A stretch of DNA of 59,049 nt from positions 1 through 59,049 of the forward strand of contig JAIOQW010000163.1 in NCBI GenBank assembly GCA_021108405.1. Direction: 5' to 3'. The notes below the pieces were generated by a model. The model saw only the letters and a program-made list of their open reading frames with translations. It was not told where the DNA came from and made no database searches. This document shows, piece after piece, positions 1 through 17,582 of this stretch; within the stretch, counting starts at the first letter, position 1, and every line of letters starts with the position of its first letter. This DNA comes from Methanosarcinales archaeon. Its GTDB lineage: Archaea > Halobacteriota > Methanosarcinia > Methanosarcinales > Methanocomedenaceae. The position numbers and the translations under genes are program-made.

Positions 1-41
1 GTGGGATGTCACCATAAAACCCACATTTGGGTAAATTATTT

Positions 42-147
42 ATTGGGAATTCCCTTATATGCCACAGAGAACACAGAGAAAAAAAACTCTGTGATCTCTG
101 TGTTCTCTGTGGCTATCATTTCTACCCCCTAATTTGAAGTGGATACA
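42..147. repeat. Dispersed hairpin element (CACAGAG-type), copy 1
   Basis: Perfect 19-bp inverted repeat GCCACAGAGAACACAGAGA (61-79) / TCTCTGTGTTCTCTGTGGC (95-113); whole segment recurs inverted at 36639-36756. Confidence 0.85.
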
Positions 148-189
148 GTTCATTATAGATTGGTGAAGGTATTGAAGGAGAAATCATAA

Positions 190-1170: not shown

Positions 1171-1196
1171 TTGACTGCAACAGTGGATTTTGTTCT

Positions 1197-1742
1197 TTAA
1201 TATTCTATATAAAATGTTGAACCTACAACATATATTTGACCGTTAGATTCGGCTTTTTGGACAAAAGTATATGATCTAGAAGGGTTTAATTCACCTGGTT
1301 TTGGCCATTCATAACTTACCCAATCTCCGCCTGATGCGTTTAATGCAATATCAATAATGCGTTTACCTATTTGATTGCCTTTTGTATCTTCAAACTCGTT
1401 CATATCCTGTCCTTCTTTCCTGAAATCCGGTGGATAAACGACCTGAACACCGTCAATTGTCCATACAAAGACAAAGAAGTCATCATGAAACCATTTACTA
1501 TTAGGTTCCCTGAATTGAGAGAATGCTGCTTCTTTATTTTCTTCAATCAGGTCTACAGCATCATTAACAAGAATAATGACATGCTCTTTATCAGACATAA
1601 GTTCAGATCCTATCTTCTCTTCTTGATCTTTATCATTCAGGCATCCTGGGACGGTAAGTAGTAAAAAAATAATAAAAAAACATGATATTATATGATTTGA
1701 TTTCACTTTATTTATCCCCTCATCCGGATTATTGTAGAACAA
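1197..1742 (-). CDS. Stand-alone Cache-domain lipoprotein (true start probably ~1700)
   Basis: Lipobox-like TVPGC; FVFVWTIDG, DTKGNQIG, GGDWVSYEWPKPG, YVVGS are single-Cache motifs; the annotated start lies inside a repeat element. Confidence 0.8.
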   Translation of the reverse strand: MFYNNPDEGINKVKSNHIISCFFIIFLLLTVPGCLNDKDQEEKIGSELMSDKEHVIILVNDAVDLIEENKEAAFSQFREPNSKWFHDDFFVFVWTIDGVQVVYPPDFRKEGQDMNEFEDTKGNQIGKRIIDIALNASGGDWVSYEWPKPGELNPSRSYTFVQKAESNGQIYVVGSTFYIEY

Positions 1743-1797
1743 AATCTTCCCTTCGGTCGGATTTTTTTGAGTATATCAAGTTATACTTGCTATACTA
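1735..1797. repeat. GAACAAAATCC modular hairpin element (modules A+E)
   Basis: TAGAACAAAATCTTCCCTTCGGTCGGATTTT followed by the palindrome AGTATATCAAG-TTATA-CTTGCTATACT; related copies at 21091, 44091, 46766, 47007, 53632. Confidence 0.85.
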
Positions 1798-2017
1798 TAA
1801 AGAAATTTATTTATTTATTTATTTATTTGTATTGTATATAAGTTTGTTGTAAAATAGTGGTCTTCCATTAGGCATCATGGGACGATCAGTAATAAATTAA
1901 TTCGTTTATACTTTCCCATATGCCAAGTCAAGTTAATTGGACGATAATTATAAGTAATATTACAACTAATTACTGTACTAGTACATATCTGTTCTTTACA
2001 GATAGGAGGAATTATGC

Positions 2018-2713
2018 ATGAAAAGGATTAAATTAATTGCAATAAGTATATTATTCCTGTGTCTGGTTATCATACCTGCGATTGCACAGGAAAATAACAC
2101 AACATCAAATGAAACTAATGTAACGTCAAATGAAACTAATGCAACAGCAACTATCGAACCAACAGCACACCCGAATGCCACAGAAACAGCTACTTCAATA
2201 CCAACTGATGGCAAGTTCCGTGTAGGTCCAACTGTAACGCTACGTCCGGTAAATGATGTAATAGATAAACATCAGGATGGTCTGGTCGAATTGTACATGA
2301 ATAACCCTTCATTGAATGACGTGACTCTTTACGCAGATGTACAGATAAGCGTGCCATCGGGGATCCATGTATACGGAGAAGGATTCGGATATGGCGGTGC
2401 TGCCGGAACAGTAGCCGGGACGTTTGAAGTGCCACCCGGAACAGTCAGGACCATACATATCAACATCAAGAGTGAAAAGGCTGGTAACTTCAATGTTCAT
2501 TTCACAGGCTTATACTGGCCGGATGGTGACAAAGACGCATTCCAGCAGATATCATTGACACACCCACTTACAGTGAAAGAGCCATCATCCAATCCAATGG
2601 ATCCGGAACCTGGCACTAAAATCCCAACAGATAAACCGAATGGACTGGCATTACCATTTGGCATCCTCTCGATGATAGCAATCGTTTTAGTCGTGCTGAT
2701 TATGCGAAAATGA
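2018..2713 (+). CDS. Secreted, C-terminally anchored surface protein with Ig-like domain (paralog 1)
   Basis: Signal peptide, Thr/Asn-rich linker with NxT sequons and a 21-bp tandem repeat (~2101-2144), C-terminal TM helix ending in RK; SD GGAGG upstream. Confidence 0.8.
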   Translation: MKRIKLIAISILFLCLVIIPAIAQENNTTSNETNVTSNETNATATIEPTAHPNATETATSIPTDGKFRVGPTVTLRPVNDVIDKHQDGLVELYMNNPSLNDVTLYADVQISVPSGIHVYGEGFGYGGAAGTVAGTFEVPPGTVRTIHINIKSEKAGNFNVHFTGLYWPDGDKDAFQQISLTHPLTVKEPSSNPMDPEPGTKIPTDKPNGLALPFGILSMIAIVLVVLIMRK

Positions 2714-3495
2714 ATGAAAGAAATAGCAATAAAAGCAAGAAGGAATCGAAAATGGACACAAGAAAATGCTCCCCTTGGTCGCATTTACTTGAGATATATT
2801 TTTATAAAATATATACAGTAAAGAAACTCATTGCCATATTCACCATATGTTTATGTCTGGCACTAATGCCTGTGATAGCGCAGGAAAACAACTCAACTGT
2901 AAATGAAACGAATACAACAGCTACAATTGAACCAACGACAGTGCCGAGCGACCAACCCGGTGAAGCTAAGTTCCGTGTAGCTCCCACTGTGACACTGCGC
3001 CCGGTAAATGATGTGATCAATAAATCACAGGACGGACTGGTTGAATTATACATGAACAATCCATCAGTAAATGACGTGACACTTAACACAGATGTACAAA
3101 TGAGTGTCCCTTCTGGGATCCATGTATATGGAGAAGGATTCGGATATGGCAGTGCAGCCGGAACAGTAGCCGGAACATTTGAGGTGCCGCCCGGAACAGT
3201 CAGGACCATACATATCAACATCAAGAGTGAAAAACCAGGTGACTTTACTATTCATTTCACAGGCTTATACTGGCCGGATGACGACAAAGACGCATTCCAG
3301 CAGATATCATTGACACACCCGTTGACTGTGAGTGAACCATCACCTGATCCACTTAATCCGAATCCAACCGGTGGGAAGGAAGAACTACCATATACTTACA
3401 TAATCGTCGGGTGTCTTGCGGTGATCGCTATTGCATTCATTGCAATGATTATCCGGAAACCTCCAAAGACCGAAGTGGTCATTGAAGAGGAGTAG
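2710..3495 (+). CDS. Surface protein paralog 2 (true start probably ~2818)
   Basis: Core nearly identical to 2018-2713; signal peptide KKLIAIFTICLCLALMPVIAQ; TM helix then tail RKPPKTEVVIEEE. Confidence 0.8.
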   Translation: MNERNSNKSKKESKMDTRKCSPWSHLLEIYFYKIYTVKKLIAIFTICLCLALMPVIAQENNSTVNETNTTATIEPTTVPSDQPGEAKFRVAPTVTLRPVNDVINKSQDGLVELYMNNPSVNDVTLNTDVQMSVPSGIHVYGEGFGYGSAAGTVAGTFEVPPGTVRTIHINIKSEKPGDFTIHFTGLYWPDDDKDAFQQISLTHPLTVSEPSPDPLNPNPTGGKEELPYTYIIVGCLAVIAIAFIAMIIRKPPKTEVVIEEE

Positions 3496-3503
3496 AGAAG
3501 CAG

Positions 3504-4172
3504 ATGAAGAGAATCAAGGTAGGTATAGGTGGAAATGGAACAATCAGGATCAAACTAAAAAAGAAAAAGAGAAACAATGAGCATGCAGGGACATCGGAGA
3601 TGAGAGGGGATTCTCCCGCATTCCCTGCACCTCATGCTTCTTTTTCTGCAGGGCAGAGGATCTCTCTGTCATACCCCATTATCAGCCAGATGGAGATAAG
3701 AGTGGAATCTGTATTCAGACCAAAAGAAACTGATGTTGAAGTAGTATATGCACTTACAGGGTATGGCACAAGCGTTGACCAACTCCATAAATTCACATCA
3801 AATGAGGTAGTAGCTCATGCCACATCAAAGATGATCTCATGTACTGCTGCGAAGATGATCGAGCACATAAGAAGCGAGCGTATCGAGATACCGGACCTGA
3901 TCGTTCATATCCACAGCCATCCATTAGGTGCGCCATCTCTATCTGATGTGGATAAACAGACCATGCCCACGGTTGCTGCACAGATGAGAGCTATTATACC
4001 AGATGCAACCATACTATTTGGTGTACATGCCATAGGCAGTGAAGAGCGAAGAGCACGAATACCACCTGAGCGAGTATCACAAAATACGGTGCGATGGAGC
4101 AGCATCACCCGTGTACACGAGGTTGCGTTCTTTGATGAATATGCAAAACCTATTGAAGTAAGGATTGATTGA
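3504..4172 (+). CDS. JAB/MPN (JAMM) metalloprotease-domain protein
   Basis: JAMM motif HIHSHPLGAPSLSDVD (HxH-x7-S-x2-D) with upstream Glu (EVVYAL). Confidence 0.8.
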   Translation: MKRIKVGIGGNGTIRIKLKKKKRNNEHAGTSEMRGDSPAFPAPHASFSAGQRISLSYPIISQMEIRVESVFRPKETDVEVVYALTGYGTSVDQLHKFTSNEVVAHATSKMISCTAAKMIEHIRSERIEIPDLIVHIHSHPLGAPSLSDVDKQTMPTVAAQMRAIIPDATILFGVHAIGSEERRARIPPERVSQNTVRWSSITRVHEVAFFDEYAKPIEVRID

Positions 4173-4689
4173 TAGCATGGATAGATCAGAGAATATAGAG
4201 AAACTGGCCGGGCTTCTCTCGGCAGATGAGTATGGTGATATTATTGCAGAAACGCTTGTCGAGATCCTTGCCGAGGAGCGCAAACGCAATATCTTTGTTA
4301 CTAAATTACAGGATCTGAAGAATGAAGTAAGAACGATCGACCGGAAGATCACGTTCACACCAATGGAGCAAAGTGTGCTTGATTTCGTAATTGCAATGAA
4401 ACAGCCACTTAATGCGAGTGAAGTTTCAAAAGGAATGGGCGCTGTATATTCAAGTCTGCAACACAGGACACATGCATCAAGTGTACTAAATACGCTTGTT
4501 TCAAAAGGGGTTCTCGGAAAAATTAAAATAGGTCATAGTTACTATTTTACATCACCTGATGAAGCTGTAAGAGAATCCCTAAAAAAGCGGGGAGAAGAAC
4601 CTGATAGATGTTCGCCGGTTAGAATTGGGGATGAGACCGGGTTGCCTCTGGCGGTTGTGCTTGAGGTGATTGGTGGGTTATTAGGGTGA
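4165..4689 (+). CDS. Winged-helix DNA-binding protein
   Basis: TPMEQSVLDFV..PLNASEV..ASSVLNTLVSKGVLGKIKIGHSYYF wHTH pattern; possible second HTH at the C-terminus. Confidence 0.65.
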   Translation: MIDSMDRSENIEKLAGLLSADEYGDIIAETLVEILAEERKRNIFVTKLQDLKNEVRTIDRKITFTPMEQSVLDFVIAMKQPLNASEVSKGMGAVYSSLQHRTHASSVLNTLVSKGVLGKIKIGHSYYFTSPDEAVRESLKKRGEEPDRCSPVRIGDETGLPLAVVLEVIGGLLG

Positions 4690-4699
4690 GGATAAGAAT

Positions 4700-5467
4700 A
4701 TGAGACGAATCGAATTCCACAATAGAGCTGAGGAAAAAAAAGAAATAAAAAGCCTCCTTGAAACTGAGCCAACGCTGATCACTTTCATTTACGGACCGAT
4801 AAACAGCGGGAAGACGGAACTGATCAACCACGTGATAGAAGAGTTACCAGAGGAATATGTCGTCTTCTACATAAACTTAAGGACTAAATTCCTGGTGAGC
4901 TATGATGATTTCATCGAGTCATTATTCGAGATGGAGATGGAATCCGAGGGGATGAAGAGAAAAGGGAAGGAGACGCTCACAGAGTTGGTGTCATCTGTTA
5001 CAAAAGTTGCGGGAATACCGATAAATAAAGAGTTTCTAGATTACGTGTTTAAGGATAATAAGCCGAAGAACGCATCCTCATATATAATTAAACTTTTCGA
5101 AGAGGTGAAGGTAACAGGTAAGCAACCAGTGTTGATTCTGGATGAATTACAGAAGATAGGGGATGTGAAAGTGAATGGAAAAGATGTAGAGAGTGAATCT
5201 AAAAAGCTATTAAAGATCAGAACAAGCCGGATGCTCTCTATATTTGACGACATATCGCTTGGAGAGGTTAAATATTCAGAAAAAAACATAATAAAAGAGT
5301 TTAGGAATTTCGAACAAGAAGAAATACTACTGTATGACAGGATAAATAAAGAAAAAATATTTTTAGTTGGGAGAAATGTCTTGTTTATTGACCCGACACA
5401 AAGAACAATTAAACCACAATCACGGCTGAATCTGCTTGCGATACGAGAGGTGATAAAGGATGTGTAA
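4700..5467 (+). CDS. MJ-type archaeal ATPase (ATPase_2) with a 96-aa internal in-frame deletion; possible pseudogene
   Basis: Walker A GPINSGKT, Walker B LILDELQ; lacks the LLIYKLF..CGGKP segment present in four paralogs. Confidence 0.8.
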   Translation: MRRIEFHNRAEEKKEIKSLLETEPTLITFIYGPINSGKTELINHVIEELPEEYVVFYINLRTKFLVSYDDFIESLFEMEMESEGMKRKGKETLTELVSSVTKVAGIPINKEFLDYVFKDNKPKNASSYIIKLFEEVKVTGKQPVLILDELQKIGDVKVNGKDVESESKKLLKIRTSRMLSIFDDISLGEVKYSEKNIIKEFRNFEQEEILLYDRINKEKIFLVGRNVLFIDPTQRTIKPQSRLNLLAIREVIKDV

Positions 5468-7307
5468 TATGAAAATGGCTGTTCTGGGATCAGTTCTAGC
5501 CAGTCTGCTGCTGCTTGTGGCACTTCCGGTATCTGCAGGAATGCAGGGCTGGCAGTATCAGCAAGAGATTGCGATTCAGGAGAATTCTGGCGAGACACTT
5601 CATGATTACCAGGTGCTAGTGGAACTGGATGGCGGTGACTTTCCAGAAGAGGCACAGCCGGATGGCGATGATATCAGATTCACGGATGCGGACGGACATG
5701 AATTGAGTTACTGGATTGAGGAATTTGATGCGGGATCTGATTACACAAGGATCTGGGTGAAGGTGCCTGAGATTCCCGCTAATGGTGAAGCTAGGATTAT
5801 GATGTGGTATGGGAATCCGGATGCTGAGAGTGTGAGTGATGGTGACGCAGTGTTTGAGTTCTTTGATGATTTTGAAGGATCTCGTTTAGATACAGGTAAA
5901 TGGGATATGAGAAATTCGGAGTATATAACCGTAGCACAGAGTAAGGTAAAAATCGGTGGTGGTGGCAGCTCAGAAACTGATGGTGTGATATGGTCAAAAT
6001 CTACTTTCCCCAGTGAATACATTATAAGAATGAATGCAGAATTGGCTGATAAGTGGCCTGCCATTGTTTGGAACATTCAAAAAGATGGAGGGGGCTACGC
6101 AGAATGGATAAACCCAGAGAATGACAAAGGATATTTCTATTACTATGACGTCTTAGACGGGTCGTATCAGAAATTAGATAAAACTGGGCAGAACACTTAC
6201 ATTTTTAATCAGTTTAAGATAATAGAGGCGGAAATAGCAGGAAATGTTCATAAATTTTATCAAGATGGGATTTTGAAAAGTCATTATACACATTCAGACT
6301 ATCAGAGTGGCGGAAAAATGGGTTTAGAACAGTGGTCTACTGGCTATTCAGAATGTGATTGGCTCTTAGTCCGACAATACACATCCTCCGAACCCACTGT
6401 CACCCTAGCTCCACCCACCCCCGCAATCCATACAGCGCTCTATATTACTAAATCCCCATCCCTCCACTCCATCCGTCAGTTCGGTGAAACCGCAATCATA
6501 CTATCCATCGATAACTCAGGCACCATAGACGCAACCGACATCGAGATCACTGATACGATCCACCCCAGTTTCGATCTCACATCAGGCGACTTCCCGAACC
6601 CGAAGCGCTACGACCTGATCCGACCCGGCGAGACAAGAGATCTCCAATACGCAATCTCATCAAAGGAGAGCGGCACATTTACGCTTGACCCTGCCACTGT
6701 CACATATGCAGATGAGGATGGCAACATCCAGGAAGTGAAATCAAAACCCGCATCTATTAAAGTCATCCCGTCCACAGAGAGCGATACTGCTGGCACATCA
6801 CACAACCCGTCAGTCTCGAGTGCAAGCGTGCAGCTTCACGGCGAAAAAACAGATGTCGTTCTCGGTGAGGATATCCTGTTGAAACTCTCTGCTGTGAACC
6901 TGATCACTAAACCCACGATGCATGTGCAGGTCATAATCATCCCGCCTTCTGGTATGAGTGTCACGTCCTCTGCTTTCGCCAAGTCCGGAGCCGGGCAGTA
7001 TACGACCACTTATGAACTTGAGCCCGGAACCGGTAAAGATATCGAGGTTGCGATACGGTCGAATCAGGTAGGTGATTTCGATGTGAAAGGCAGGATCATC
7101 TACTACTTCGGCAATGATCGCGAAGACGCGGAGGATCACACACTCACCCTGCCGATCACTGTGCAGGCGAAGGCAGAGGCGGGTGCGGGCGCAGAGTGGA
7201 CAGCAGGCACATCAGAATCGGAGGAGAAGGGAACGAGTACGTCTGGATTCGTGGTAGTAATTGCTATCATCGGATTATTACTGGCTTATCTGAGGAAAAG
7301 AGCATGA
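5460..7307 (+). CDS. DUF2341-domain surface protein with lectin-like middle, two Ig-like domains and PGF-CTERM-like anchor
   Basis: Signal peptide; WQYQQEIAI..DGDDIRFTD..LSYWIEE..IWVKVP..YGNPDA..FEFFDDF; C-terminus SGFVVVIAIIGLLLAYLRKRA. Confidence 0.8.
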   Translation: MCNMKMAVLGSVLASLLLLVALPVSAGMQGWQYQQEIAIQENSGETLHDYQVLVELDGGDFPEEAQPDGDDIRFTDADGHELSYWIEEFDAGSDYTRIWVKVPEIPANGEARIMMWYGNPDAESVSDGDAVFEFFDDFEGSRLDTGKWDMRNSEYITVAQSKVKIGGGGSSETDGVIWSKSTFPSEYIIRMNAELADKWPAIVWNIQKDGGGYAEWINPENDKGYFYYYDVLDGSYQKLDKTGQNTYIFNQFKIIEAEIAGNVHKFYQDGILKSHYTHSDYQSGGKMGLEQWSTGYSECDWLLVRQYTSSEPTVTLAPPTPAIHTALYITKSPSLHSIRQFGETAIILSIDNSGTIDATDIEITDTIHPSFDLTSGDFPNPKRYDLIRPGETRDLQYAISSKESGTFTLDPATVTYADEDGNIQEVKSKPASIKVIPSTESDTAGTSHNPSVSSASVQLHGEKTDVVLGEDILLKLSAVNLITKPTMHVQVIIIPPSGMSVTSSAFAKSGAGQYTTTYELEPGTGKDIEVAIRSNQVGDFDVKGRIIYYFGNDREDAEDHTLTLPITVQAKAEAGAGAEWTAGTSESEEKGTSTSGFVVVIAIIGLLLAYLRKRA

Positions 7308-8377
7308 AAAGAATTGCATTCCACGATCGCGAAAGAGAAATAAAAGAGATCATGAATATACTGGACTCGGAGCCGTCCCTGATCACCTTCGTGTACGGTC
7401 CGATAAACAGCGGCAAGACCACACTGATCAGCCATCTGATAAAGGAACTTCCAGACGAGTATGCCCCGTTCTATGTTAATCTGCGAGGACGATTTATTGT
7501 GGACTATGAAGATTTCCTAAACGTCCTTTTCGAGATTGACGAAATAAGTGGGGTTAATAATGTTACCGAGTATTCGAAATCGATATTGAAGGATCTGGGA
7601 GCAGTTAGTGGAATTCCGATACCAATAAATCTATTCGAGCAGATATTTGAAAAAAAGGACAAAAGCAAAGATATGTTTAAATACATAGAACAATTCTTTA
7701 TGCAAATATCAAAGACGCGTACTCCCATTTTAATCATCGATGAATTGCAGGTGGTCGGAGATCTGAAGATCGATGGGTTACTGATGTATAAATTATTCAA
7801 CTTTTTTATACGATTGACAAAGGAGTTACATCTCTGTCACGTCTTCGGTGTTTCATCCGATTCATTATTCATCGAAAAAGTCTACAGTGAGGCGATGCTC
7901 GATGGAAGGTGCAGATATCTACTGGTGGATGATTTTGATTCCGTAACTGCCGCCGTGTTTCTGGAGGAACATGGTTTTACTGAAGCTGAGAAGGCGGTTG
8001 CCTGGGAATACTGCGGCGGAAAGCCAGTGAATTTAATAGAAATGATCTATGCCGATAACAGGGAACGAATTGCAAAGGATATGCTAAAGACAAGAATAAC
8101 CCAGCTCAAGGATTTACTCGACTATCTGGATTATACCAAGCCGAGAATTATGATTGGAGATGATGAATACATGGTTGAAAAGGAAGATATTGTTGATATC
8201 CTTAACAGGTTTGTAGATACGGAATATATCGATGATAAAGGGTTGAACAGACCTGCAAAGCATCTCTTGATCAAGGATAACATCCTGTTCTTTGACCCAC
8301 ATACCGGGGTCATCAAACTGCAGTCGAGGATGAATCTGCTCGCGATACAAGAGGTGATGAAAGATGAAAAGAATTGA
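7304..8377 (+). CDS. MJ-type archaeal ATPase (ATPase_2)
   Basis: Start MKRIAFHDRE overlaps the previous stop (ATGA); GPINSGKT, IIDELQ, CGGKP. Confidence 0.9.
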   Translation: MKRIAFHDREREIKEIMNILDSEPSLITFVYGPINSGKTTLISHLIKELPDEYAPFYVNLRGRFIVDYEDFLNVLFEIDEISGVNNVTEYSKSILKDLGAVSGIPIPINLFEQIFEKKDKSKDMFKYIEQFFMQISKTRTPILIIDELQVVGDLKIDGLLMYKLFNFFIRLTKELHLCHVFGVSSDSLFIEKVYSEAMLDGRCRYLLVDDFDSVTAAVFLEEHGFTEAEKAVAWEYCGGKPVNLIEMIYADNRERIAKDMLKTRITQLKDLLDYLDYTKPRIMIGDDEYMVEKEDIVDILNRFVDTEYIDDKGLNRPAKHLLIKDNILFFDPHTGVIKLQSRMNLLAIQEVMKDEKN

Positions 8378-9440
8378 ATTTTACGACCGCAAAAAGGAAA
8401 TCAAAGAGATCATGAACATATTGGACACAGAGCCATCTCTGATCACCTTCATCTACGGACCGATAAACAGCGGCAAGACCACGATGATCAGCCACCTGAT
8501 AGAACAACTACCAGAAGATTATGCTCCTTTTTATATTAATCTTCGGGGTAGATTCATAACAGATTATGAAGATTTCTTAAACGTATTATTCGAGATTGAC
8601 GAAAAAGGCGTGGTCGATAATGTCACTGAGTATGCAAGATCAATATTAAAAGATATGGGAAATGTTAGTGGAATTCCAATACCAGTTAATCTATTTGAAC
8701 AGATCTTTGAAAAAAAAGATAAAAGCAAAGATATGTTTAAATATATGGAACAGTTCTTTGTAGAAATATCAAAAAAACGTACACCAGTCCTGATCATCGA
8801 TGAGTTGCAGGTGGTTGGAGATATAAAAATCGATGGATTTTTAATATACAAATTATTTAATTTTTTTATACGACTTACCAAGGAACTGCATCTATGCCAT
8901 GTTTTTGCAGTTTCTTCTGACTCACTATTTATCGAACAAGTTTACAGCGAGGCGATGCTACAGGGGCGAAGCAGGCATCTGCTGGTGGATGACTTTAATA
9001 AGGAGATAACGATGGATTTTTTGGATGAATATGGATTTACCGATGTGGAAAAAGAACTTGCATGGAACTACTGTGGTGGCAAGCCAATTTATCTGGTTGA
9101 GTTGGTAAATTCAGGAGAAAACCGAAAAAAGAAGGCAGAAGAGATGCTTGGAATGAGGATAGGACAGATTGAAGGACTCATAGAAGATGCCAGGGAATTT
9201 GGATACAGGATATCCTATGGTGATGAGAAAATCATATTGAGCGAGGAGCATATACTTAAAAATTTAGAGAAATTCAGAGACAGGGATTATCTTAAAGCAA
9301 GTGAGCTTTCAAAATCAGTTAAACTCGGTTTGATTAAAGCAAACATACTCTTTCTTGACTCGGTTAAACAAATCATTAAGCCTCAATCACAATTGGATTT
9401 GCTTGCAATACGAGAGGTGATGAAAGATGAAAAGAATTAA
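8364..9440 (+). CDS. MJ-type archaeal ATPase (ATPase_2)
   Basis: FYDRKKE, GPINSGKT, IIDELQ, CGGKP; SD GAGGTGA at 8351. Confidence 0.9.
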   Translation: MKRIEFYDRKKEIKEIMNILDTEPSLITFIYGPINSGKTTMISHLIEQLPEDYAPFYINLRGRFITDYEDFLNVLFEIDEKGVVDNVTEYARSILKDMGNVSGIPIPVNLFEQIFEKKDKSKDMFKYMEQFFVEISKKRTPVLIIDELQVVGDIKIDGFLIYKLFNFFIRLTKELHLCHVFAVSSDSLFIEQVYSEAMLQGRSRHLLVDDFNKEITMDFLDEYGFTDVEKELAWNYCGGKPIYLVELVNSGENRKKKAEEMLGMRIGQIEGLIEDAREFGYRISYGDEKIILSEEHILKNLEKFRDRDYLKASELSKSVKLGLIKANILFLDSVKQIIKPQSQLDLLAIREVMKDEKN

Positions 9441-10476
9441 ATTTCACGACCGCAAAAAGGAAATCAAAGAGATCATGAACATATTGGACACAGAGCCATC
9501 TCTGATCACCTTCATCTACGGACCGATAAACAGTGGAAAGACCACGATGATCAGCCACCTGATAGAACAACTACCAGAGGATTATGCGCCATTCTATATT
9601 AATCTCCGGGGTAGGTTCATAACAGATTATGAAGATTTCCTAAACGTATTATTCGAGATTGACGAAAAAGGTGTGGTTGATAATGTCACTGAGTACGCAA
9701 GATCAATGTTAAATGATCTGGGGACCGTTAGTGGAATTCCAATACCAGTTAATCTATTTGAACAAATCTTTGAAAAAAAGGATAAAAGTAAAGATATGTT
9801 CAAATATATAGAACAATTTTTTACAGAAATATCAAAGAACCGTGTACCTGTCCTGATCATCGATGAGTTGCAGGTAATTGGTGATCTGAAGATCGATGGA
9901 TTGTTGATATATAAATTATTCAACTTTTTCATACGATTGACAAAGGAGTTACATCTCTGTCATATCTTTGCGGTTTCATCAGATTCACTCTTTATCGAGC
10001 AGGTTTATAGTGAGGCGATGTTGCAAGGGCGCAGCCGGCATCTACTGGTCGATGACTTTAATAAGGTCGATACAATGGATTTTCTTAACAAGCATAACTT
10101 CAGCGATAAGGAGAAAGAACTTACATGGAATTGCTGCGGTGGCAAACCAATATGTTTGGTTGAGCTTGCGAATGCAAAAATGAATGGAAAAGATATCGAG
10201 AGCGAGGCTAAAATGTTAGTAAAGATTAGAACTAGCCAGATACTTTCGATATTTGATGAAATATCACTTGGAAAAGTAGAACATTCAGAAAAGGATATAA
10301 TAGAGGAGTTTAAGAATTTTGAAAAAGAAGAGATAATACAATATGCTAGAGTAAATGAAAGAAAAATTTTTTTAGTTGGAAGAAATGTGTTGTTCATTGA
10401 CCCGGTGCAAAGAACAATTAAGCCACAGTCGAAGTTGAACCTGCTCGCAATACGAGAGGTCATAAACAGTGAATAA
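9427..10476 (+). CDS. MJ-type archaeal ATPase (ATPase_2)
   Basis: N-terminal ~210 aa near-identical to 8364-9440; C-terminus resembles 4700-5467. Confidence 0.9.
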   Translation: MKRIKFHDRKKEIKEIMNILDTEPSLITFIYGPINSGKTTMISHLIEQLPEDYAPFYINLRGRFITDYEDFLNVLFEIDEKGVVDNVTEYARSMLNDLGTVSGIPIPVNLFEQIFEKKDKSKDMFKYIEQFFTEISKNRVPVLIIDELQVIGDLKIDGLLIYKLFNFFIRLTKELHLCHIFAVSSDSLFIEQVYSEAMLQGRSRHLLVDDFNKVDTMDFLNKHNFSDKEKELTWNCCGGKPICLVELANAKMNGKDIESEAKMLVKIRTSQILSIFDEISLGKVEHSEKDIIEEFKNFEKEEIIQYARVNERKIFLVGRNVLFIDPVQRTIKPQSKLNLLAIREVINSE

Positions 10477-11833
10477 AATATATCGAATATGGATGGTACC
10501 TTTTAGTATCATAACAATACTACTGATCATATCAATAGCATCCGCAACCGATTCTCCCCTTGATACAGTTCAGGTCTATGCTCTCGGACCAAAAGACACA
10601 GGTTCATCAGTTGAATCTTCAATAATCCTTGAAAAAGACAGCGAATATTGCATCGTGGTCTCTGGCGTCTTCCAGTTTCGAAGAGATGTTGACTGGGGCC
10701 GGGCAGATGCGCAGTTTCGTATGGGCAATGGGGGTGCATATACTTACTCGTTCAACTCGATCGAGTTCAATGGAAAGCGGATGAATGCAGCAATAAGTGA
10801 TGTCGAGAATCACACATACACATTCTATCACACAGGTGATGGTGAAAAGATCAGGTTCAGTATTTATGACTGCATTATCACTCATGAGCGAGGTGGATAC
10901 GATAACAATGCAGGAATGCTCTTAGTTGAGATATATCCACTAACAACACTTTCTGTAACAAAACTACCATCACCGCATACTATCGAGAAAGGAGATACGT
11001 CAACGATAATCGTGACTGTGAAAAACACAGCTCCAAAAGGAATGGGCGAGTTAAAGGATATCGAAGTGACTGATTCCTGTCCTTCGGGTTTCACACTGAT
11101 AAGCGGTGATGTGCATGCGCAGTATCAGGTACTCAAACCAGATGAGTCACGCACACTCCAATATGTCATAAAACCTACTCAGAGCGGTACATTCAACCTT
11201 GAGCCAGCCAGGGTCTTATACTATGATGAGAGTGGAGAAAATCATACTAAAAGATCAGATACTGCAACACTTACAGTTGTATCATCCCCGGGACTGCAAC
11301 CCACAGCACCACCTAACGCAAGTGTGAAATTACACGGCGAGAGGACTGATGTAGGGATCGGAGATGATATTTTACTCAAGCTCTCGGCTGTGAACCTGAT
11401 AACAAAGCCGGTAATGCATGTTCAAATAATTATCATTCCACCGTCCGGAATGAGTGTAGCATCATCAGGTTTTGTTATGTCAGGAGCCGGGCAGTTCACT
11501 TCTGACTATGAAATTGATCCTGGCGTGGGCAGGGACATTGAGGTCAGGATCGTGGCAAACCAGATAGGCAATTATACAGTGGAAGGAAGGGTGATCTATT
11601 ATTTCGAAGATGATGTCGAGAATGCCGAAGACTATACACTACGTTTACCGATCAGGGTAAGGTCTGTCGGTATAGAGTCAACAATAGCCACATCCACACC
11701 CAAACCTACATCCGATGGTCATGGCATAATACCAGGGTTGCCAGGATTTACTGGTGTGATTATGTTGATCGTAGTGATGATTGTAACTGTTTTAATAAGA
11801 GGAAGAAAAAAACAAAAACGAGATCAATTTTAA
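10469..11833 (+). CDS. Surface protein: putative lectin-like N-domain, two Ig-like (BatD/DUF11-like) domains, PGF-CTERM
   Basis: Signal peptide; C-terminal half homologous to 5460-7307; LPGF + TM + basic tail; GTG start. Confidence 0.8.
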   Translation: MNKIYRIWMVPFSIITILLIISIASATDSPLDTVQVYALGPKDTGSSVESSIILEKDSEYCIVVSGVFQFRRDVDWGRADAQFRMGNGGAYTYSFNSIEFNGKRMNAAISDVENHTYTFYHTGDGEKIRFSIYDCIITHERGGYDNNAGMLLVEIYPLTTLSVTKLPSPHTIEKGDTSTIIVTVKNTAPKGMGELKDIEVTDSCPSGFTLISGDVHAQYQVLKPDESRTLQYVIKPTQSGTFNLEPARVLYYDESGENHTKRSDTATLTVVSSPGLQPTAPPNASVKLHGERTDVGIGDDILLKLSAVNLITKPVMHVQIIIIPPSGMSVASSGFVMSGAGQFTSDYEIDPGVGRDIEVRIVANQIGNYTVEGRVIYYFEDDVENAEDYTLRLPIRVRSVGIESTIATSTPKPTSDGHGIIPGLPGFTGVIMLIVVMIVTVLIRGRKKQKRDQF

Positions 11834-11852
11834 TTCATTGGAGGAAGTATAA

Positions 11853-13889
11853 ATGAAATCAGGAATTCAGAAACAAATAAGATCATTTCGGAGTATCCGA
11901 AGAAGTTGTATATGCCTGATCGCACTTGCAATATTTTCAGGGTGTATATGTATACCGGATGCGGCAGCACAAGCCCCAACCACTATCGACTATATTCACA
12001 TCACAACTAATGTGAACAATGGCTATGCTATAACCACTGTGGAAGAGAAACTCACCAATCCCCACGACACTCCGACAGATGATGAGTTCAGGTTCCTGAT
12101 CCCTGATGATGCATTCATCTCAGGTTTTTCTATATTTGTCGATGGAGTTGAATACAAAGCAGATGTTCTCTTAAAAGAAGAGGCAGATGAGCAGTTTGAG
12201 CAGGCAGTTTCAGAAGGAAAGACTGCAGGCCTTCTAAAGGTAAAAAAAGAGAATATATTCTCATATTCACTGAGTTTTACACCTCACCAGAGTATTACTA
12301 TCCGTTTGACATATGAACAACCAATTAAAAAGATACTTGGTGAATATGAATACATTTTATCATTACGAGAAACCGATGTGGCACATCATGTACCTGATCT
12401 TCTGGTAAACATTACAGTGACATCAGTGAATAAGATCAACACACTGGAAACTCCTGGATTTAAAGAGGCAAACGTGAAATACCTCTCCCCTACGAAAGCA
12501 CGGGTCACTTACAGTGCAACGATGCTTCCGGACAGGGACTTAAGAGTTATTTTTACCACTGATAACACATCACTAAATGGAGAGATGCTCTTCTATGAAA
12601 CAGGTGGGCAGGGTTATTTGATGCATGTTTTCTCACCATCGCAGGAGGACCTGGGGACCACGGCTCTTAGTAAAGAGATCATTTTTGTGGTCGATAAGTC
12701 AGGCTCTATGAGAGGTACCAAAATGGTACAGGTTAAACAGGTCTTTACAGGCATTATCACAGACCTTCCACCTGACGACTACTTCAATATTATTTTCTTT
12801 GAGAGTGATGTTATAACGTTTCGGGATTCACTCATGGAAGCAAACACACAGACAAAGGCAGATGCAGCGAACTTTGTTAACATGCTCGGCGCAGGTGGTG
12901 GCACGAATATTAACGAAGCACTGCTTCAAGCAGTAAATATGTTTGAGCCTGATTCGAAGCGTGTACCTATCATTGTTTTTCTCACGGACGGAGAGCCTAC
13001 GAATGGCGTAACATCACCTCATGTGATCAGAGACAACGTAAAAAACGCAAATAAGGCAGATGTTTCTATATTCACTATCGCATTTGGGATCGAGGATGAA
13101 GAAAACTATGATTTTCTAAGAGCGCTAAGTCTTGAGAACTATGGTGTAGCAGAACAGTTCGACCTCCATGAAAATTCTGAGACCGAAATGAACACATTCT
13201 ATAAGACAATATCCACACCTGTAATAACTGATATGGACTGGAGCTATACTGATTCATCTGATATCGTGAATACAGGTTACAATACTCTCTTTACAGGATC
13301 AGATGCCATTATACTTGCCAGATACCAGGCAGGTAAGAACAATATAGATTCAAGTATTGATGCAATTACACGCACAGGCAACCATAGCTTTGATGAGACA
13401 TTTTCTGTTGTTACCAAACAAGAGAACAGCTTTATTCCAAAGCTCTGGGCATATACAAAGATAAGGCGGCTGATGGACAGGATGGTTGTAGTAGGTGAGA
13501 CAGATACAGATGCACTAGTATCCGAGATCACTGATCTTTCTTTGGAGTACGGTTTTGTCACTCCATACACATCACTATTTGTGGAAGTACCTGTCTTTGA
13601 AAAGATTAGCACAACAGCCACTGAAACTGACATACCGGTAATGTCAGAAGCGGTACCCGATTCAGCCACTGGTGATAAAACCACTTATAATTCAGCCCCC
13701 AGTCATGGAATGGATCAAACAGGAGAAGCTATGGACTGGGATTCCAGACCAATCGACCAGGAAGTTTCTCCTGCAGAAGCAGTTCCTGATGCAGCACCAA
13801 CAGAACAAGAACCAGGCTTTAGCGCTTTCTTAGCAACTACAGGGATTGTCGCTATTGCATATCTGATGAGAATAAACAGAAAAATTTGA
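11853..13889 (+). CDS. VIT + vWA domain protein (inter-alpha-trypsin inhibitor-like) with PGF-CTERM
   Basis: VIT (IPDDAFISGF, ITIRLTYEQ), MIDAS DKSGSM..GGTNI..LTDG, FVTPYTSL, EPGF + TM + RK. Confidence 0.9.
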   Translation: MKSGIQKQIRSFRSIRRSCICLIALAIFSGCICIPDAAAQAPTTIDYIHITTNVNNGYAITTVEEKLTNPHDTPTDDEFRFLIPDDAFISGFSIFVDGVEYKADVLLKEEADEQFEQAVSEGKTAGLLKVKKENIFSYSLSFTPHQSITIRLTYEQPIKKILGEYEYILSLRETDVAHHVPDLLVNITVTSVNKINTLETPGFKEANVKYLSPTKARVTYSATMLPDRDLRVIFTTDNTSLNGEMLFYETGGQGYLMHVFSPSQEDLGTTALSKEIIFVVDKSGSMRGTKMVQVKQVFTGIITDLPPDDYFNIIFFESDVITFRDSLMEANTQTKADAANFVNMLGAGGGTNINEALLQAVNMFEPDSKRVPIIVFLTDGEPTNGVTSPHVIRDNVKNANKADVSIFTIAFGIEDEENYDFLRALSLENYGVAEQFDLHENSETEMNTFYKTISTPVITDMDWSYTDSSDIVNTGYNTLFTGSDAIILARYQAGKNNIDSSIDAITRTGNHSFDETFSVVTKQENSFIPKLWAYTKIRRLMDRMVVVGETDTDALVSEITDLSLEYGFVTPYTSLFVEVPVFEKISTTATETDIPVMSEAVPDSATGDKTTYNSAPSHGMDQTGEAMDWDSRPIDQEVSPAEAVPDAAPTEQEPGFSAFLATTGIVAIAYLMRINRKI

Positions 13890-13924
13890 GTGATAATAGC
13901 AGAATCTGGCAGGAGAGAAACAGC

Positions 13925-14992
13925 ATGAGACATATAGAATTTCATGATAGGGAAAAAGAGATAACAGAGATAATGAGGTTACTCAACACAGATCCATCCC
14001 TGATTACCTTTATTTATGGACCGATAAATAGCGGAAAGACTGAACTGATCACCCATTTGACTAAACAACTACCAGAGAACTATGTTGTTTTTTATATAAA
14101 TCTTCGAGGGAAGTTCATATCAAGTTACGATGACTTTGTAAGGGCTTTATTCAAATTGGATCGCGAAGAGAAGGAATATAAAGCAATATTAAAAAAGATA
14201 TCGGAAGTATCGATAAAAAGTCTGAAGTATACTGGAATACCCATAACTGAAGACATTCTGGAATTATTTTTTAGAGAAAGAAATTATGAAGACGTTTTTG
14301 AGTTTCTAGAAGATTATTTTACCGAAATAGCAGAAAATAAAGTTCCTGTGTTGATAGTGGATGAACTGCAGAAAATTGGAGATGTTAAGATTAATTCATT
14401 TCTGATTTACGAACTCTTCAATCTGTTTATTCGGTTGACAAAAGAGTTACATCTCTGCCACGTCTTTGCGGTTTCATCAGATTCGATCTTCATTGAAAAT
14501 GTCTACAGTGAAGCGATGCTTGAGGGTAGATGTAGGTATCTACTGGTGGATGATTTTGATGAGGAGACCACTACCGCATTTTTAGATAATTATGAATTTA
14601 GCGATGATGAGAAGACGGTTGCCTGGAAATACTGCGGTGGCAAACCGATATGTCTGGTTGAACTCGTGAATATACCAGATGATCGAAAAAACAAGGCAAA
14701 GGAGATGCTCAAGATAAGAAAGGGGCAAATAGAAGAGGTTGTGTATTCGCTTGAAGCGAGGGATAAGAAGATGTTTGACATGATAACAAGAATACTTTTT
14801 GAATTTATCGAGAAGGATAAGGTCGGATACAAATATCTAAACGATGAAATTAAGTTTCTGGTCGGGAAAAACATTATTTTTGCAGATTCAGTAAATAAAG
14901 AATTGAGACCACAATCCAGGTTAAATCTACTTGCTATACGGGAAGTGATGTTATCGATAACTACAACACTGGAATCCACATCTCATCAATAA
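13925..14992 (+). CDS. MJ-type archaeal ATPase (ATPase_2)
   Basis: MRHIEFHDRE start by alignment with paralogs; GPINSGKT, IVDELQ, CGGKP. Confidence 0.9.
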   Translation: MRHIEFHDREKEITEIMRLLNTDPSLITFIYGPINSGKTELITHLTKQLPENYVVFYINLRGKFISSYDDFVRALFKLDREEKEYKAILKKISEVSIKSLKYTGIPITEDILELFFRERNYEDVFEFLEDYFTEIAENKVPVLIVDELQKIGDVKINSFLIYELFNLFIRLTKELHLCHVFAVSSDSIFIENVYSEAMLEGRCRYLLVDDFDEETTTAFLDNYEFSDDEKTVAWKYCGGKPICLVELVNIPDDRKNKAKEMLKIRKGQIEEVVYSLEARDKKMFDMITRILFEFIEKDKVGYKYLNDEIKFLVGKNIIFADSVNKELRPQSRLNLLAIREVMLSITTTLESTSHQ

Positions 14993-15033
14993 AAGGCAAT
15001 TGTTTTATAATTTATAAACAAACCTAATCTATT

Positions 15034-15297
15034 ATGTTCAATTTAGAGTTATGTATCAGATTTCTGATTGGACTTTTCTTCCTCTATGCATGCATATATG
15101 CGGTCAGGTCCGTCAAAATCGATTACTGGAAGCAGTGCTGGTATGTTATCCTACTTGGAAGTATAATCCATATGACCTATATCATAGCTGCTTTTATGGA
15201 ATTTACTTATGCAGGCCATTTAAGAAATCTTGGAATGGGAATTGTGGCGATCGGGATCATAATGGTTGCAAGACGTACTAAAGATATTTTAAGATGA
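15034..15297 (+). CDS. Small three-TM membrane protein
   Basis: 87 aa with three hydrophobic stretches. Confidence 0.6.
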   Translation: MFNLELCIRFLIGLFFLYACIYAVRSVKIDYWKQCWYVILLGSIIHMTYIIAAFMEFTYAGHLRNLGMGIVAIGIIMVARRTKDILR

Positions 15298-15313
15298 TCG
15301 AATAACCATATGA

Positions 15314-16003
15314 TCAAATAATAATGATCCCTTCATCAGTGATCTTGTAATTGGCACTTATATGATCACATCCCATCATCGCTTCAACAGTTATCTTTTT
15401 ACCGTCCATATGCACAATATTATCTACCGTTGCCTTTAACATAGTCTCTATCTGTGAATCTACCACTCCTTCCGTATAGGTGATTATACCTGTACTTCCA
15501 GCCAATTTTATCCTCATAGTATATGATTTAAGTACCCGGATCATAAGTATTGGTGAATTATAGGCAAAAAGGGTAGTTGCAGAATCAAGGATCGATCTGA
15601 ATGTATGTGTTTTTTGGAAGATGGACTGTAGTTCTTCAATAATCTCACTGATGATCTCAGTTGGATTCTGCGGTGAAGAGATCTTGAATGAAGCAGTCTC
15701 TTTTTGTACAGACCCGATTGACCCTGATGCAATATCCATTACATAAAGCTGCTTTTTAGTAAAATAGTCATGAATAAACCATTTGAAGTACATCATTGTC
15801 TCTTCAAGCTGTGGAAGATTATAATCTGTCATTATATAAAGGCAGTATTCATCGTCAGTTATTGCCTGGTGCAGGAACTGGTAACAAAATATGGACTTAC
15901 CTGTCTTTGGTGGCCCGTATACCAATGTAATAGTATTATTAGGGAATCCACCGCCAATTAATTCATCAAGACCTGCGATCCCTGATCTGGTAGATTGTAT
16001 CAT
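15314..16003 (-). CDS. KaiC/RAD55-like RecA-fold ATPase
   Basis: SGIAGLDELIGGGFP, Walker A GPPKTGKS, ILDS Walker B. Confidence 0.9.
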   Translation of the reverse strand: MIQSTRSGIAGLDELIGGGFPNNTITLVYGPPKTGKSIFCYQFLHQAITDDEYCLYIMTDYNLPQLEETMMYFKWFIHDYFTKKQLYVMDIASGSIGSVQKETASFKISSPQNPTEIISEIIEELQSIFQKTHTFRSILDSATTLFAYNSPILMIRVLKSYTMRIKLAGSTGIITYTEGVVDSQIETMLKATVDNIVHMDGKKITVEAMMGCDHISANYKITDEGIIII

Positions 16004-16011
16004 TTTTGTTA

Positions 16012-17196: not shown

Positions 17197-17200
17197 TATC

Positions 17201-17578
17201 CTATACCTCTTCCAGTATCTCCTGAACCTGTTTGGCCCTTATCTCGATCTCGACTGTGATCAGACCAAGCTGGGCTTCTACCTGCGCCAGTGCAAAGAAT
17301 AGTGCCTTTTCTCCCGAAGGCTTTAACAATAATACACCGTGTTCGGTCTTTACATTAACCTCTGCTACTTCTCCGGTTCCCATTTGCGAACTTGCTGTCT
17401 GGGCACTTGCTATAATTGTTGAGCATAGCGCACCGACAATGCGTTCATTCATATCAGGCGGCATTATTGATGTGATCAGCAGTCCTTCAGTACTCACTAT
17501 CCCTGCAGCGCTTACCTGTCCTACCTGCATAAATTTGGCCAGTACCTGATCCAGCTTTTCTTTTTTAGTTTGCACCAT
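17201..17578 (-). CDS. Roadblock/LC7 (MglB-like) protein
   Basis: AAGIVSTEGLLITS..VGALCSTI..AQLGLI; start MVQTK after SD AGGTGA. Confidence 0.9.
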   Translation of the reverse strand: MVQTKKEKLDQVLAKFMQVGQVSAAGIVSTEGLLITSIMPPDMNERIVGALCSTIIASAQTASSQMGTGEVAEVNVKTEHGVLLLKPSGEKALFFALAQVEAQLGLITVEIEIRAKQVQEILEEV

Positions 17579-17582
17579 ACTC

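Follow-up and report, generated by a model that had tools for sequence, protein, structure and literature searches.

A conserved membrane protein, JAMM protease, and winged-helix gene core in an archaeal surface-protein cluster: a candidate protease-controlled repressor switch

The gene cluster and its conserved core

The window analyzed here, a 59,049-nucleotide stretch of DNA from a Methanosarcinales archaeon (contig JAIOQW010000163.1, assembly GCA_021108405.1), contains between positions 2018 and 14992 a cluster of 12 genes for surface proteins, a JAMM/JAB zinc metalloprotease (JAB), a winged helix-turn-helix (wHTH) protein, and ATPases. As proposed in an earlier interpretation made from the sequence alone (the sequence-only reading), all 12 open reading frames (ORFs) lie on the plus strand and are tightly packed (2018–2713, 2710–3495, 3504–4172, 4165–4689, 4700–5467, 5460–7307, 7196/7301–8377, 8364–9440, 9427–10476, 10469–11833, 11853–13889, and 13886–14992). 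Adjacent frames overlap by 4–14 nt at 8 of the 11 junctions and are separated by gaps of 8–19 nt at the other three. The domain calls of the sequence-only reading were mostly correct, as judged by Pfam (ATPases, DUF2341, and VIT-vWA), by motif (JAB), and by fold model (wHTH). The 5′ part of the cluster is organized as follows.

2018..2713, plus strand: surfA (gene 1), with signal peptide, NxT/S-rich linker, Ig-like β-sandwich, and C-terminal membrane anchor, without a KPPK tail
2758..2822, no strand assigned: interspersed repeat of ∼61 nt, inserted between surfA and surfB
2818..3495, plus strand: surfB (gene 2), a receptor-like type I membrane protein with Ig-like ectodomain, membrane helix, and putative cytoplasmic tail RKPPKTEVVIEEE; the reading frame extends back to 2710
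3504..4172, plus strand: JAMM/JAB zinc metalloprotease, with an N-terminal β-hairpin, a poly-Lys segment, and the family-specific motif MEIRVESVFRP
4165..4689, plus strand: wHTH protein, with three N-terminal helices, a winged helix (residues 66–129), and a C-terminal helical, helix-turn-helix-like part; its start overlaps the JAB stop by 8 nt

The JAB gene is present in a single copy in this genome and has a patchy distribution, being found in 9 of 41 related genomes. Around these matches the same gene set recurs in the same order, namely two small surface proteins, JAB, wHTH, ATPases, a DUF2341 protein, a gene-10-like protein, and a VIT-vWA protein. Because this synteny recurs in other genomes, the 12-gene arrangement is not a product of chance. 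The gene-neighborhood check suggested by the sequence-only reading thus confirmed that JAB, wHTH, Ig proteins, and ATPases occur together elsewhere.

A scan of one genome per species extended the comparison to 39 loci. These belong to anaerobic methanotrophic (ANME) archaea of the ANME-2 type, Candidatus Methanogaster, Candidatus Ethanoperedens, and Candidatus Methanoperedens, with single contigs labeled Archaeoglobaceae, Halobacteriota, Altiarchaeales, Thermococci, SCGC euryarchaeote, and a Dehalococcoidia metagenome-assembled genome (MAG). The order membrane protein, JAB, wHTH recurs across the 39 loci, and three layers can be distinguished: this universal core; frequent surface-protein partners (gene-10-like, VIT-vWA, and other surface proteins, including PEGA/Big_7 and LamG/DUF11 proteins with PGF-CTERM); and the ATPases. 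Of the proposed 12-gene system, the conserved unit is thus a three-gene core plus surface proteins, and not the full set of 12 genes.

Within the core, JAB and wHTH are closely linked. Of the loci, 31 have 600 nt or more of flank; in 30 of them, wHTH is downstream of JAB on the same strand, and in 22 of those 30 it overlaps JAB or begins no more than 30 nt away. Among 301 genomes of the class, JAB was found in 18 and wHTH in 16; 15 genomes have both, always on one contig. The three JAB-only cases comprise one broken gene and two contig ends, and the single wHTH-only case is a fragment with stops. Of 134 Methanosarcinaceae-type genomes, one carries the module.

Some loci show the module in altered form. 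The JAB gene at G023:C43:59–505 (L018/L056) is broken by three stop codons, with the tail-bearing ORF upstream still recognizable, and provides an example of module decay. On the 3.7-kb contig labeled Dehalococcoidia MAG (L051), JAB has a hydrophobic N-terminal extension, and the next gene encodes a membrane protein that has a surfB-like domain; the occurrence on a bacterial-binned contig could reflect a binning error or gene transfer. In L011 (L025 is the same contig), a nucleotidyltransferase (MNT) and HEPN pair identified with Pfam lies between JAB and wHTH at 5473–6196, and gaps of the same size (775–782 nt) separate the two genes in L024, L030, and L039.

Probable coupling of JAB to the membrane and to the winged-helix protein

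JAB is, by its catalytic motif, a JAMM metalloprotease. The motif E...HxHx7Sx2D is complete and intact, reading HSHPLGAPSLSDVD after the conserved glutamate in the window, and Glu-79, His-137, His-139, Ser-147, and Asp-150 do not vary in any of the 16 sequences of one alignment or the 20 of another, the latter with fused forms included. The window protein itself has no Pfam match at E ≤ 0.01; it reaches E 0.02 and 15.2 bits against Prok-JAB (cutoff 25) and a weak E 0.0054 and 16.6 bits against the NCBIfam desampylase family (cutoff 130). Of 20 relatives, 19 match Prok-JAB at E ≤ 0.05 (best 3.1e-8) and 11 match RadC-like JAB, and a search of the Protein Data Bank (PDB) with the JAB profile found a RadC homologue (E 0.0038). 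The family also carries features of its own, namely an N-terminal hairpin and the motifs MEIRVESVFRP and WSSITR. Unfused members start with the conserved β-hairpin-like segment, followed by runs of Lys/Arg.

The family is small. A search for JAB gave 122 proteins at E ≤ 0.001, and among 1.84 billion representatives the JAB profile matched 105 at E ≤ 1e-3, of which 47 reached E ≤ 1e-30. A word-based search with the window protein showed no longer JAB forms; this is a sensitivity limit, since the profile search and the inspected loci did contain fused forms. A regular-expression classifier for motif and transmembrane helix was too crude for the 105 profile matches, recognizing the motif in 24 of 105 and the hairpin in 9 of 18 unfused forms.

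The gene upstream of JAB encodes a receptor-like membrane protein. In the structure model of surfB, a signal peptide and a disordered linker rich in NxT/S precede an eight-stranded β-sandwich (residues 57–171, pLDDT about 85–93) and a membrane helix (residues 192–212), and Foldseek matched the model to PapD-like, complement MG, and TRAP-β sandwich folds. The sequence-only reading had called the products of genes 1 and 2 anchored Ig-domain surface proteins, a fair description given signal peptide, sandwich, and membrane helix. surfA and surfB are paralogues with 74% identity, surfA being a second copy that is restricted to ANME-2-type loci.

Immediately upstream of JAB, the ORF ends in a membrane helix and a conserved tail motif in 34 of the 39 loci. 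The tail follows the consensus R-K-P-P-K-T-E-V-x-I-E-E (…KPPKTEV.IEE), with RKPPKTEVVIEEE in the window, RRPPKTEVNIEQ in Methanoperedens, RRKPPKVEIEET in Archaeoglobaceae, RRKPPKVTVEE in the SCGC sequence, and KRKPPEIQI(R/K)E in two uncultured archaea. The ectodomain length of the tail-bearing proteins varies from ∼230 to 740 amino acids, while the tail is conserved. Because basic residues follow the helix, and because the proteins have a signal peptide and sequons, the tail probably faces the cytoplasm.

The ∼61-nt repeat between surfA and surfB, to which 37 other complete or partial copies in the genome match (85–100% identity), keeps surfB in an open frame as far back as the ATG at 2710 and thereby makes genes 1 and 2 overlap; the alignment of gene 2 with its relatives starts only at residue 37. 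The repeat contains an AT-rich palindromic stretch, UAUAUUUUUAUAAAAUAUA, with a hairpin fold of z −2.3. It could be an element like a miniature inverted-repeat transposable element, or a mobile promoter or terminator.

In some family members, the membrane protein and the protease are a single chain. In L049 (445 amino acids) and L055 (427 amino acids), a continuous frame runs from the ectodomain through the membrane helix to JAB. Neither fusion has the tail or the hairpin, and the wHTH gene is still next in line, with an overlapping or near-adjacent stop and start. We inspected the architecture of 16 JAB profile matches. P0143 has the same architecture as L055, and P0131 (1382 amino acids) combines two DUF2341 domains, a LamG-like region, repeats, a surfB-like domain, a membrane helix, and JAB. 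Multi-pass hydrophobic N termini are found in P0156, P0158, P0160, P0166, P0167, and P0177, zinc ribbons with a hydrophobic segment in P0141, and soluble N termini in P0138, P0145, P0187, P0188, P0194, and P0205. Judged from these sequences, the fusions represent Rosetta-stone links between the surface ectodomains of the cluster and JAB and would explain tail and hairpin as the two halves of a split interface.

P0194 and P0205 are distant, acidic members of the JAB family, in which the N-terminal segment appears UBA/NAC-like by eye. If real, this segment would link one branch of the family to ubiquitin-like recognition.

The wHTH protein yielded a structure model of high confidence (pLDDT 90.9). 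In a VIA-align comparison against 48,161 chains, MecI ranked first (Z 11.0, root mean square deviation 2.2, 70 aligned residues) and the BlaI homologue Rv1846c fourth (Z 10.3). Foldseek gave no match to the model at E ≤ 0.001, and the protein atlas gave only leads below 0.9. A ubiquitin-like reading of the C terminus (…GGLLG) was rejected, as the GG is not conserved and the segment forms a helix-turn-helix.

We modeled the complex as three chains (JAB, surfB tail, and wHTH) using custom alignments, with wHTH as the scored partner. The JAB–wHTH pair scored 0.71 (0.71, 0.70, and 0.72 in individual runs), compared with 0.00 for the best of three controls. In the calibration of the method, 58 of the 80 solved complexes attained this mark, and so did 2 of the 110 mismatched pairs; these counts hold only roughly for custom alignments and more than two chains. 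Contact agreement between runs was at least 39%, and partner pLDDT at least 78. On the JAB side, the confidently modeled interface comprises residues 56–73 (the MEIRVESVFRP region), 96, 182–185, and 200–201; on the wHTH side, it comprises residues 78–81, 122–123, 129–146, and 171–174. The pairwise structure prediction proposed by the sequence-only reading thus came out in favor of an association, and the binding of wHTH by JAB is supported by the model only.

Surface-protein partners and PF01637 ATPases

The remaining eight genes encode three further surface proteins and five ATPases; the ATPase domains were assigned with Pfam.

4700..5467, plus strand: remnant of a PF01637 ATPase (gene 5, 255 amino acids) with an internal deletion, covering profile positions 1–127 of 225
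5460..7307, plus strand: gene 6 surface protein, with DUF2341, a BatD/DUF11/TRAP-β-like Ig domain, a surfB-like membrane-proximal domain, and a PGF-CTERM-like anchor
7301..8377, plus strand: PF01637 ATPase with MJ1010-like C-terminal domain
8364..9440, plus strand: PF01637 ATPase with MJ1010-like C-terminal domain; its C terminus matches the solved MJECL15 and MJ1010 domains
9427..10476, plus strand: PF01637 ATPase with MJ1010-like C-terminal domain
10469..11833, plus strand: gene 10 surface protein, with an N-terminal domain without family, a BatD/DUF11-like Ig domain, a surfB-like domain, and a membrane anchor
11853..13889, plus strand: gene 11 VIT-vWA surface protein, with a PGF-CTERM-like anchor
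13886..14992, plus strand: PF01637 ATPase with MJ1010-like C-terminal domain

In the gene 6 (E 3e-10) and gene 10 (E 2e-10) products, the membrane-proximal domain is a homologue of the surfB ectodomain, and four proteins of the cluster therefore share one Ig-like module. Against the PGF-CTERM profile (cutoff 18.8 bits), gene 6 (17.0 bits) and gene 11 (15.1 bits) both remain below threshold, and genes 1, 2, and 10 have no match; two other surface proteins of the related locus L011 pass it with 24.1 and 30.0 bits. The genome encodes an archaeosortase A (240.7 bits, cutoff 75). Gene 11 has the architecture of TIGR03788, the marine proteobacterial sortase-target family, and is not a member of that family (213.4 bits, cutoff 551.65). 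For the N-terminal domain of gene 10, the protein atlas listed PA-IL lectin on 17% of one cluster at 0.82 (below 0.9), and “lectin” is accordingly a weak lead for this protein.

Four of the ATPases score 178–189 bits against PF01637 and the deleted one 92.7 bits (cutoff 33.2); PF21690 is found in all five. Their motifs are GPINSGKT (Walker A) and IIDE/ILDE (Walker B). The sequence-only reading had counted five STAND-like ATPases. There are indeed five PF01637 proteins, the first being internally deleted, but the STAND label is loose: the ∼350-amino acid proteins end after the winged-helix (wH) domain without sensor repeats, and only sub-threshold matches to nSTAND6 and NPHP3_N were seen. The remark of that reading that the usual partners of such genes are missing was correct, as MoxR (COG0714), DUF58, β-grasp, and E1 proteins are not among the cluster proteins according to Pfam.

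The genome has 53 PF01637 matches, 39 of them over the cutoff. Six copies belong to the ∼350-amino acid subfamily. The cluster accounts for five of them; the remaining copy, a full-length ATPase, comes directly after a wHTH fragment (86% identical to residues 122–158 of the window wHTH) on contig C47 (C47:18995–20240, G000). Gene 5 is a chimera, its N-terminal 160 residues being 92.5% identical to the C47 ATPase and its C terminus resembling gene 9, whereas its positional counterpart in G040 is full length. The near-identical N-terminal halves, this chimeric gene, and gene fragments in other loci suggest recombination between ATPase cassettes. In the ATPase tree, paralogue lineages are common to several genomes (for example, the window copy at 7304 groups with a G033 copy, support 100/99); this tree is indicative only, as it holds 21 of 38 rows, the other 17 having been dropped because the tblastn match ran over a stop.

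ATPases of the subfamily occur in 10 of the 39 JAB loci, all of ANME-2c, Ethanoperedens, or unclassified Methanosarcinales/Methanobacteriota type, and in none of the six loci, Methanoperedens-type or distant, whose downstream sequence extends for the full 10 kb. Among the 41 relatives, 13 have the ATPase subfamily, 9 have JAB, and 6 have both. In seven of them, one with a 99% complete genome, the ATPase occurs without a JAB match, and the subfamily is therefore partly scattered outside the cluster context. The possibility raised by the sequence-only reading that the ATPases are independent of this context thus holds in part.

We examined the neighbors of seven ATPase loci outside the JAB cluster (L088–L093 and L096). 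In four of them (L088, L091, L093, and L096), the neighbor is a DUF2341, S-layer, dockerin, or vWA protein. The others have surfB-like fragments (L089), a tubulin-like gene (L092), and a transposase with an ABC transporter (L090). We infer that the ATPases are a lineage-specific accessory tied to secreted-protein genes, and their build of AAA+ and winged-helix domains suggests DNA-binding switches or assembly factors.

Two side observations concern these loci. Beside the lone ATPase of L088 (G007:C74), the ORFs 6290–7591, 8735–9331, 10780–13887, and 13986–15293 all end in a C-terminal zinc ribbon, a recurring tag on a DUF2341 protein, a small protein, a β-propeller/CARDB protein, and an SPFH/Band-7 protein. 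The tubulin-like gene of L092 (7316–8350; PF00091, E 1.5e-12) lies directly upstream of the lone subfamily ATPase, and a divergent tubulin/FtsZ-family ORF (PF00091, E 8e-14) lies immediately upstream of the JAB module in L011 (1980–3086).

Alternatively, the cluster might be no single system and instead a surface gene island, built up by duplication and recombination from a local regulator pair, adhesin-like genes, and proliferating ATPase copies. With 1393 proteins at E ≤ 1e-20, compared with 122 for JAB at E ≤ 0.001, the ATPase family is large; its members occur without JAB, their number and order vary and include fragments, and the 39 PF01637 matches over the cutoff in this genome fit the same picture. 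However, the three-gene core and its partners, the gene-10-like (lecIg) and VIT-vWA proteins, persist from ANME-2 to Methanoperedens; five of the six genome copies of the ATPase subfamily are in the cluster, with the sixth following a wHTH fragment; and the paralogue lineages of the tree are common to several genomes. We regard mere accretion as an unlikely account of the cluster.

A candidate membrane-coupled repressor switch

Upstream of the first gene, two short elements are candidates for control of the operon.

1948..1956, plus strand: TATA-like box TTATAAGTA, in an ∼85-nt block conserved upstream of the first gene; candidate operon promoter
1974..1985, no strand assigned: TGTACTAGTACA, a perfect 12-nt palindrome located after the TATA-like box and before the start codon; candidate wHTH operator

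The ∼85-nt block is common to 17 ANME-2-type loci, and the sequence farther upstream is unrelated. It contains the BRE/TATA-like element AAAnGTTTAAGTA, an invariant TGTAC, a Shine–Dalgarno sequence, and, in most of the 17 loci, the inverted repeat TGAACA-N9-TGTTCA. The TGTACTAGTACA palindrome is also found in L041, TGTA-N4-TACA in L048 and L054, and GTAC-N11-GTAC in L042, L043, L044, and L046. Similar palindromes follow TATA-like boxes in Methanoperedens-type loci, L048, and L054, and the GTAC type occurs in distant loci as well. An Rfam search of window positions 1–16000 gave no family at gathering score.

With the gene order and its conservation, the fusions, the catalytic motif, and the folds established, we propose that the core is a membrane-coupled switch in which a JAMM protease and a winged-helix repressor control a surface-protein operon, a reading to which we give an even chance. 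The glycosylated, Ig-like ectodomain of surfB would face outward and its short conserved tail the cytoplasm. The receptor would tether JAB at the membrane, covalently in the fused forms; in the split forms, the N-terminal β-hairpin and poly-Lys segment of JAB probably dock on the acidic tail. The protease would bind the winged-helix protein encoded by the overlapping next gene, which would otherwise occupy the palindromes between TATA box and operon start as a repressor. A change at the cell surface would then lead JAB to cleave or release the repressor, and the loss of the repressor would turn on or readjust the operon together with its surface proteins. Because the DUF2341, BatD-like, and VIT-vWA surface proteins share the membrane-proximal Ig-like domain of the receptor, the receptor may monitor their assembly or take part in it. 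In ANME-2-type lineages, the ATPases would have been added as cassettes of ATPase and surface gene, and they are probably extra regulators or assembly factors for the adjoining secreted-protein genes.

The sequence-only reading had imagined extracellular receptors with cytoplasmic protease and DNA-binding outputs, an arrangement that fits the fusions, the conserved tail, and the JAB–wHTH complex model. That interpretation is therefore partly supported: a conserved, surface-linked module with protease and DNA-binding parts is real, the ATPases are accessory to it, and the analysis gave no support for defense.

Several observations weigh against the proposed switch. The proposed docking of hairpin and tail is deduced from co-occurrence and charge complementarity only, the complex score referring to wHTH as the partner, and the calibration of that model is approximate, as noted above. 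The catalytic residues of JAB are not among the confident contacts, and the binding could therefore be exosite or regulatory and not substrate-like. In the fold ranking of wHTH, Fur, PerR, MarR, and ArsR-type repressors are within 1 Z of MecI, which therefore identifies a repressor-type winged helix and not membership of the BlaI family; the best Pfam match, PF03965 (Penicillinase_R), is below threshold (21.6 versus 22.6 bits), and the best PDB match of the wHTH profile is 1p6r at E 0.066. A palindrome pattern defined post hoc occurs in 8 of 30 upstream windows versus 56 of 4176 background windows, an enrichment that is a lead only because the loci are related to one another, and an RNA leader is another possible explanation of the conserved 5′ block. 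Gene order is also not without exceptions: other genes lie between JAB and wHTH in L037, L048, and L050, L040 has the order surfB, wHTH, JAB, and L051 has JAB with no wHTH within 2.5 kb. The ATPases, moreover, occur without JAB in seven relatives, one of them 99% complete.

The logic of the proposed switch resembles that of the bacterial β-lactam sensors BlaR1/BlaI and MecR1/MecI, in which a zinc metalloprotease sensor inactivates a winged-helix repressor by proteolysis. Both combine an extracellular sensor, a membrane span, a cytoplasmic zinc metalloprotease, and an adjacent gene for a winged-helix repressor. However, the archaeal protease is of the JAMM/MPN type instead of M56 HEXXH, the ectodomain is Ig-like or DUF2341/LamG instead of a penicillin-binding sensor domain, receptor and protease are usually separate chains joined by the tail, and cleavage is only proposed. 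As protease and sensor families differ, the module is not a member of the BlaR1/BlaI type. A looser likeness exists to ImmA/ImmR and IrrE/DdrO, soluble COG2856-type metalloproteases that respond to intracellular signals and for which proteolysis of the repressor is the switch. There, too, a metalloprotease gene adjoins the gene of a helix-turn-helix repressor, whereas the enzyme described here is a JAMM protein and would be coupled to the membrane. Compared with the JAB/JAMM proteins of ubiquitin-like (Ubl) systems, RadC, and the archaeal JAMM1 desampylase, JAB has the same catalytic motif but no Ubl/E1 partner, an N-terminal hairpin and motifs of its own, and membrane coupling or fusion.

A putative archaeal secretion or surface system comprising a vWA protein, a MoxR-type AAA+ ATPase, and Ig-like S-layer proteins (arCOG01314/arCOG02884) has been described (Makarova et al., 2015, PMC5898192). 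This system and the Bat/MoxR-vWA operons resemble the present cluster in that genes for secreted vWA and Ig-like surface proteins accompany those for AAA+ ATPases, but the ATPases here are PF01637 proteins with an MJ1010-type wH domain and not MoxR/COG0714, and DUF58 is missing. The terms “JAB” and “wHTH” do not occur in that main text. In the literature searched, including terms in PMC6393860, PMC4158269, and PMC5898192, we found no description of a module of JAB, wHTH, and membrane tail, a statement on which any supplementary arCOG neighborhood tables could bear. The proposed switch is in this sense a variant of protease-controlled repressor signaling not described in the literature searched.

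A wider interpretation of the same data, which we hold only tentatively and consider possible and not probable, would define a new class of archaeal one-pass receptor signaling. A JAMM protease, docked on the receptor tail by β-strand addition or fused to the receptor, would read the state of the adhesin/S-layer coat, perhaps including contact with the syntrophic partner in methane- or alkane-oxidizing consortia, and would reset the winged-helix repressor by proteolysis. In ANME-2, recombining cassettes of AAA+/wH ATPase and adhesin would extend the module and diversify the surface repertoire.

Instead of serving a switch, the membrane-held JAMM peptidase might act in the maturation or quality control of surface proteins, trimming tails or precursors, with wHTH as a local transcription factor or adaptor and not as the target. 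JAMM enzymes typically act on C-terminal tails, JAB adjoins a membrane protein with a conserved C-terminal tail, and several co-encoded proteins carry PGF-CTERM-like anchors. Yet the fused forms, which have no free tail, have kept all catalytic residues and the wHTH partner. The PGF-CTERM proteins offer no cytoplasmic tail to trim and have an archaeosortase available for their processing, and the complex model puts wHTH on JAB. A role confined to maturation is thus improbable in our view.

We consider it quite unlikely that the module is a sensor of viruses or other conflict, in which the receptor would detect an attack on or binding to the surface proteins and JAB and wHTH (with the AAA+ ATPases in ANME-2) would trigger defense or surface switching. 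Its patchy distribution with high identity across families, the variable cassettes of ATPase and surface genes with their fragments and chimeras, and the MNT/HEPN pair in L011/L025 together with the gaps of like size in L024, L030, and L039 would suit such a role, which the sequence-only reading had also envisaged. However, PADLOC-DB 2.0 has no hit for the non-ATPase proteins of the cluster, with no family for seven of the 8 or for the small ORF at 15034–15297, and gives weak generic AAA matches only (E 1e-6 to 1e-3) for the five ATPases, Pfam finds no nuclease or other effector in the window cluster, and the flanking genes are of signaling and housekeeping types. The MNT/HEPN insertion itself is a sign of tolerance of mobile pairs and not of a defense role.

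That JAB is a desampylase-type isopeptidase removing a small modifier from wHTH or membrane proteins, as the weak NCBIfam match and the UBA-like segments of P0194 and P0205 might suggest, is very improbable, as no β-grasp, E1, or E2-like gene is found in the cluster (Pfam: none among the 19 cluster and flank proteins), the C-terminal GG of the window wHTH is not conserved, and the JAB family is defined by membrane coupling.

The membrane-coupled switch, if true, would give JAMM proteases a regulatory role outside ubiquitin-like pathways, and the natural occurrence of fused and split forms makes the module of receptor, protease, and repressor a directly testable mechanism. To our knowledge, little is known about signaling from membrane to transcription in archaea apart from histidine kinases. 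Uncultured ANME and alkane-oxidizing archaea depend on cell-surface contacts with partner bacteria. The switch would single out the surface proteins of the DUF2341, LamG, BatD, and VIT-vWA kinds as a set under regulation, and PF01637 ATPases as recurring neighbors of secreted-protein genes.

The window has further genes on both sides of the cluster. A small ORF at 15034–15297 is doubtful, as it has no family match in Pfam, NCBIfam, or PADLOC and is not among the tblastn matches listed. Upstream, the window encodes an eRF1-like/acVLRF1-type release-factor-family protein (190–1170, plus strand) and a short Cache-domain ORF that may be a fragment (1197–1742, minus strand). Downstream lie four co-oriented genes (15314–20582, minus strand) for a KaiC-like ATPase, a fusion of a KaiC-like domain with a Ras/Arf-like small GTPase, a Roadblock/LC7 protein, and a 999-amino acid protein with seven PAS domains, a set that resembles an MglA/MglB-style GTPase switch with a sensor.

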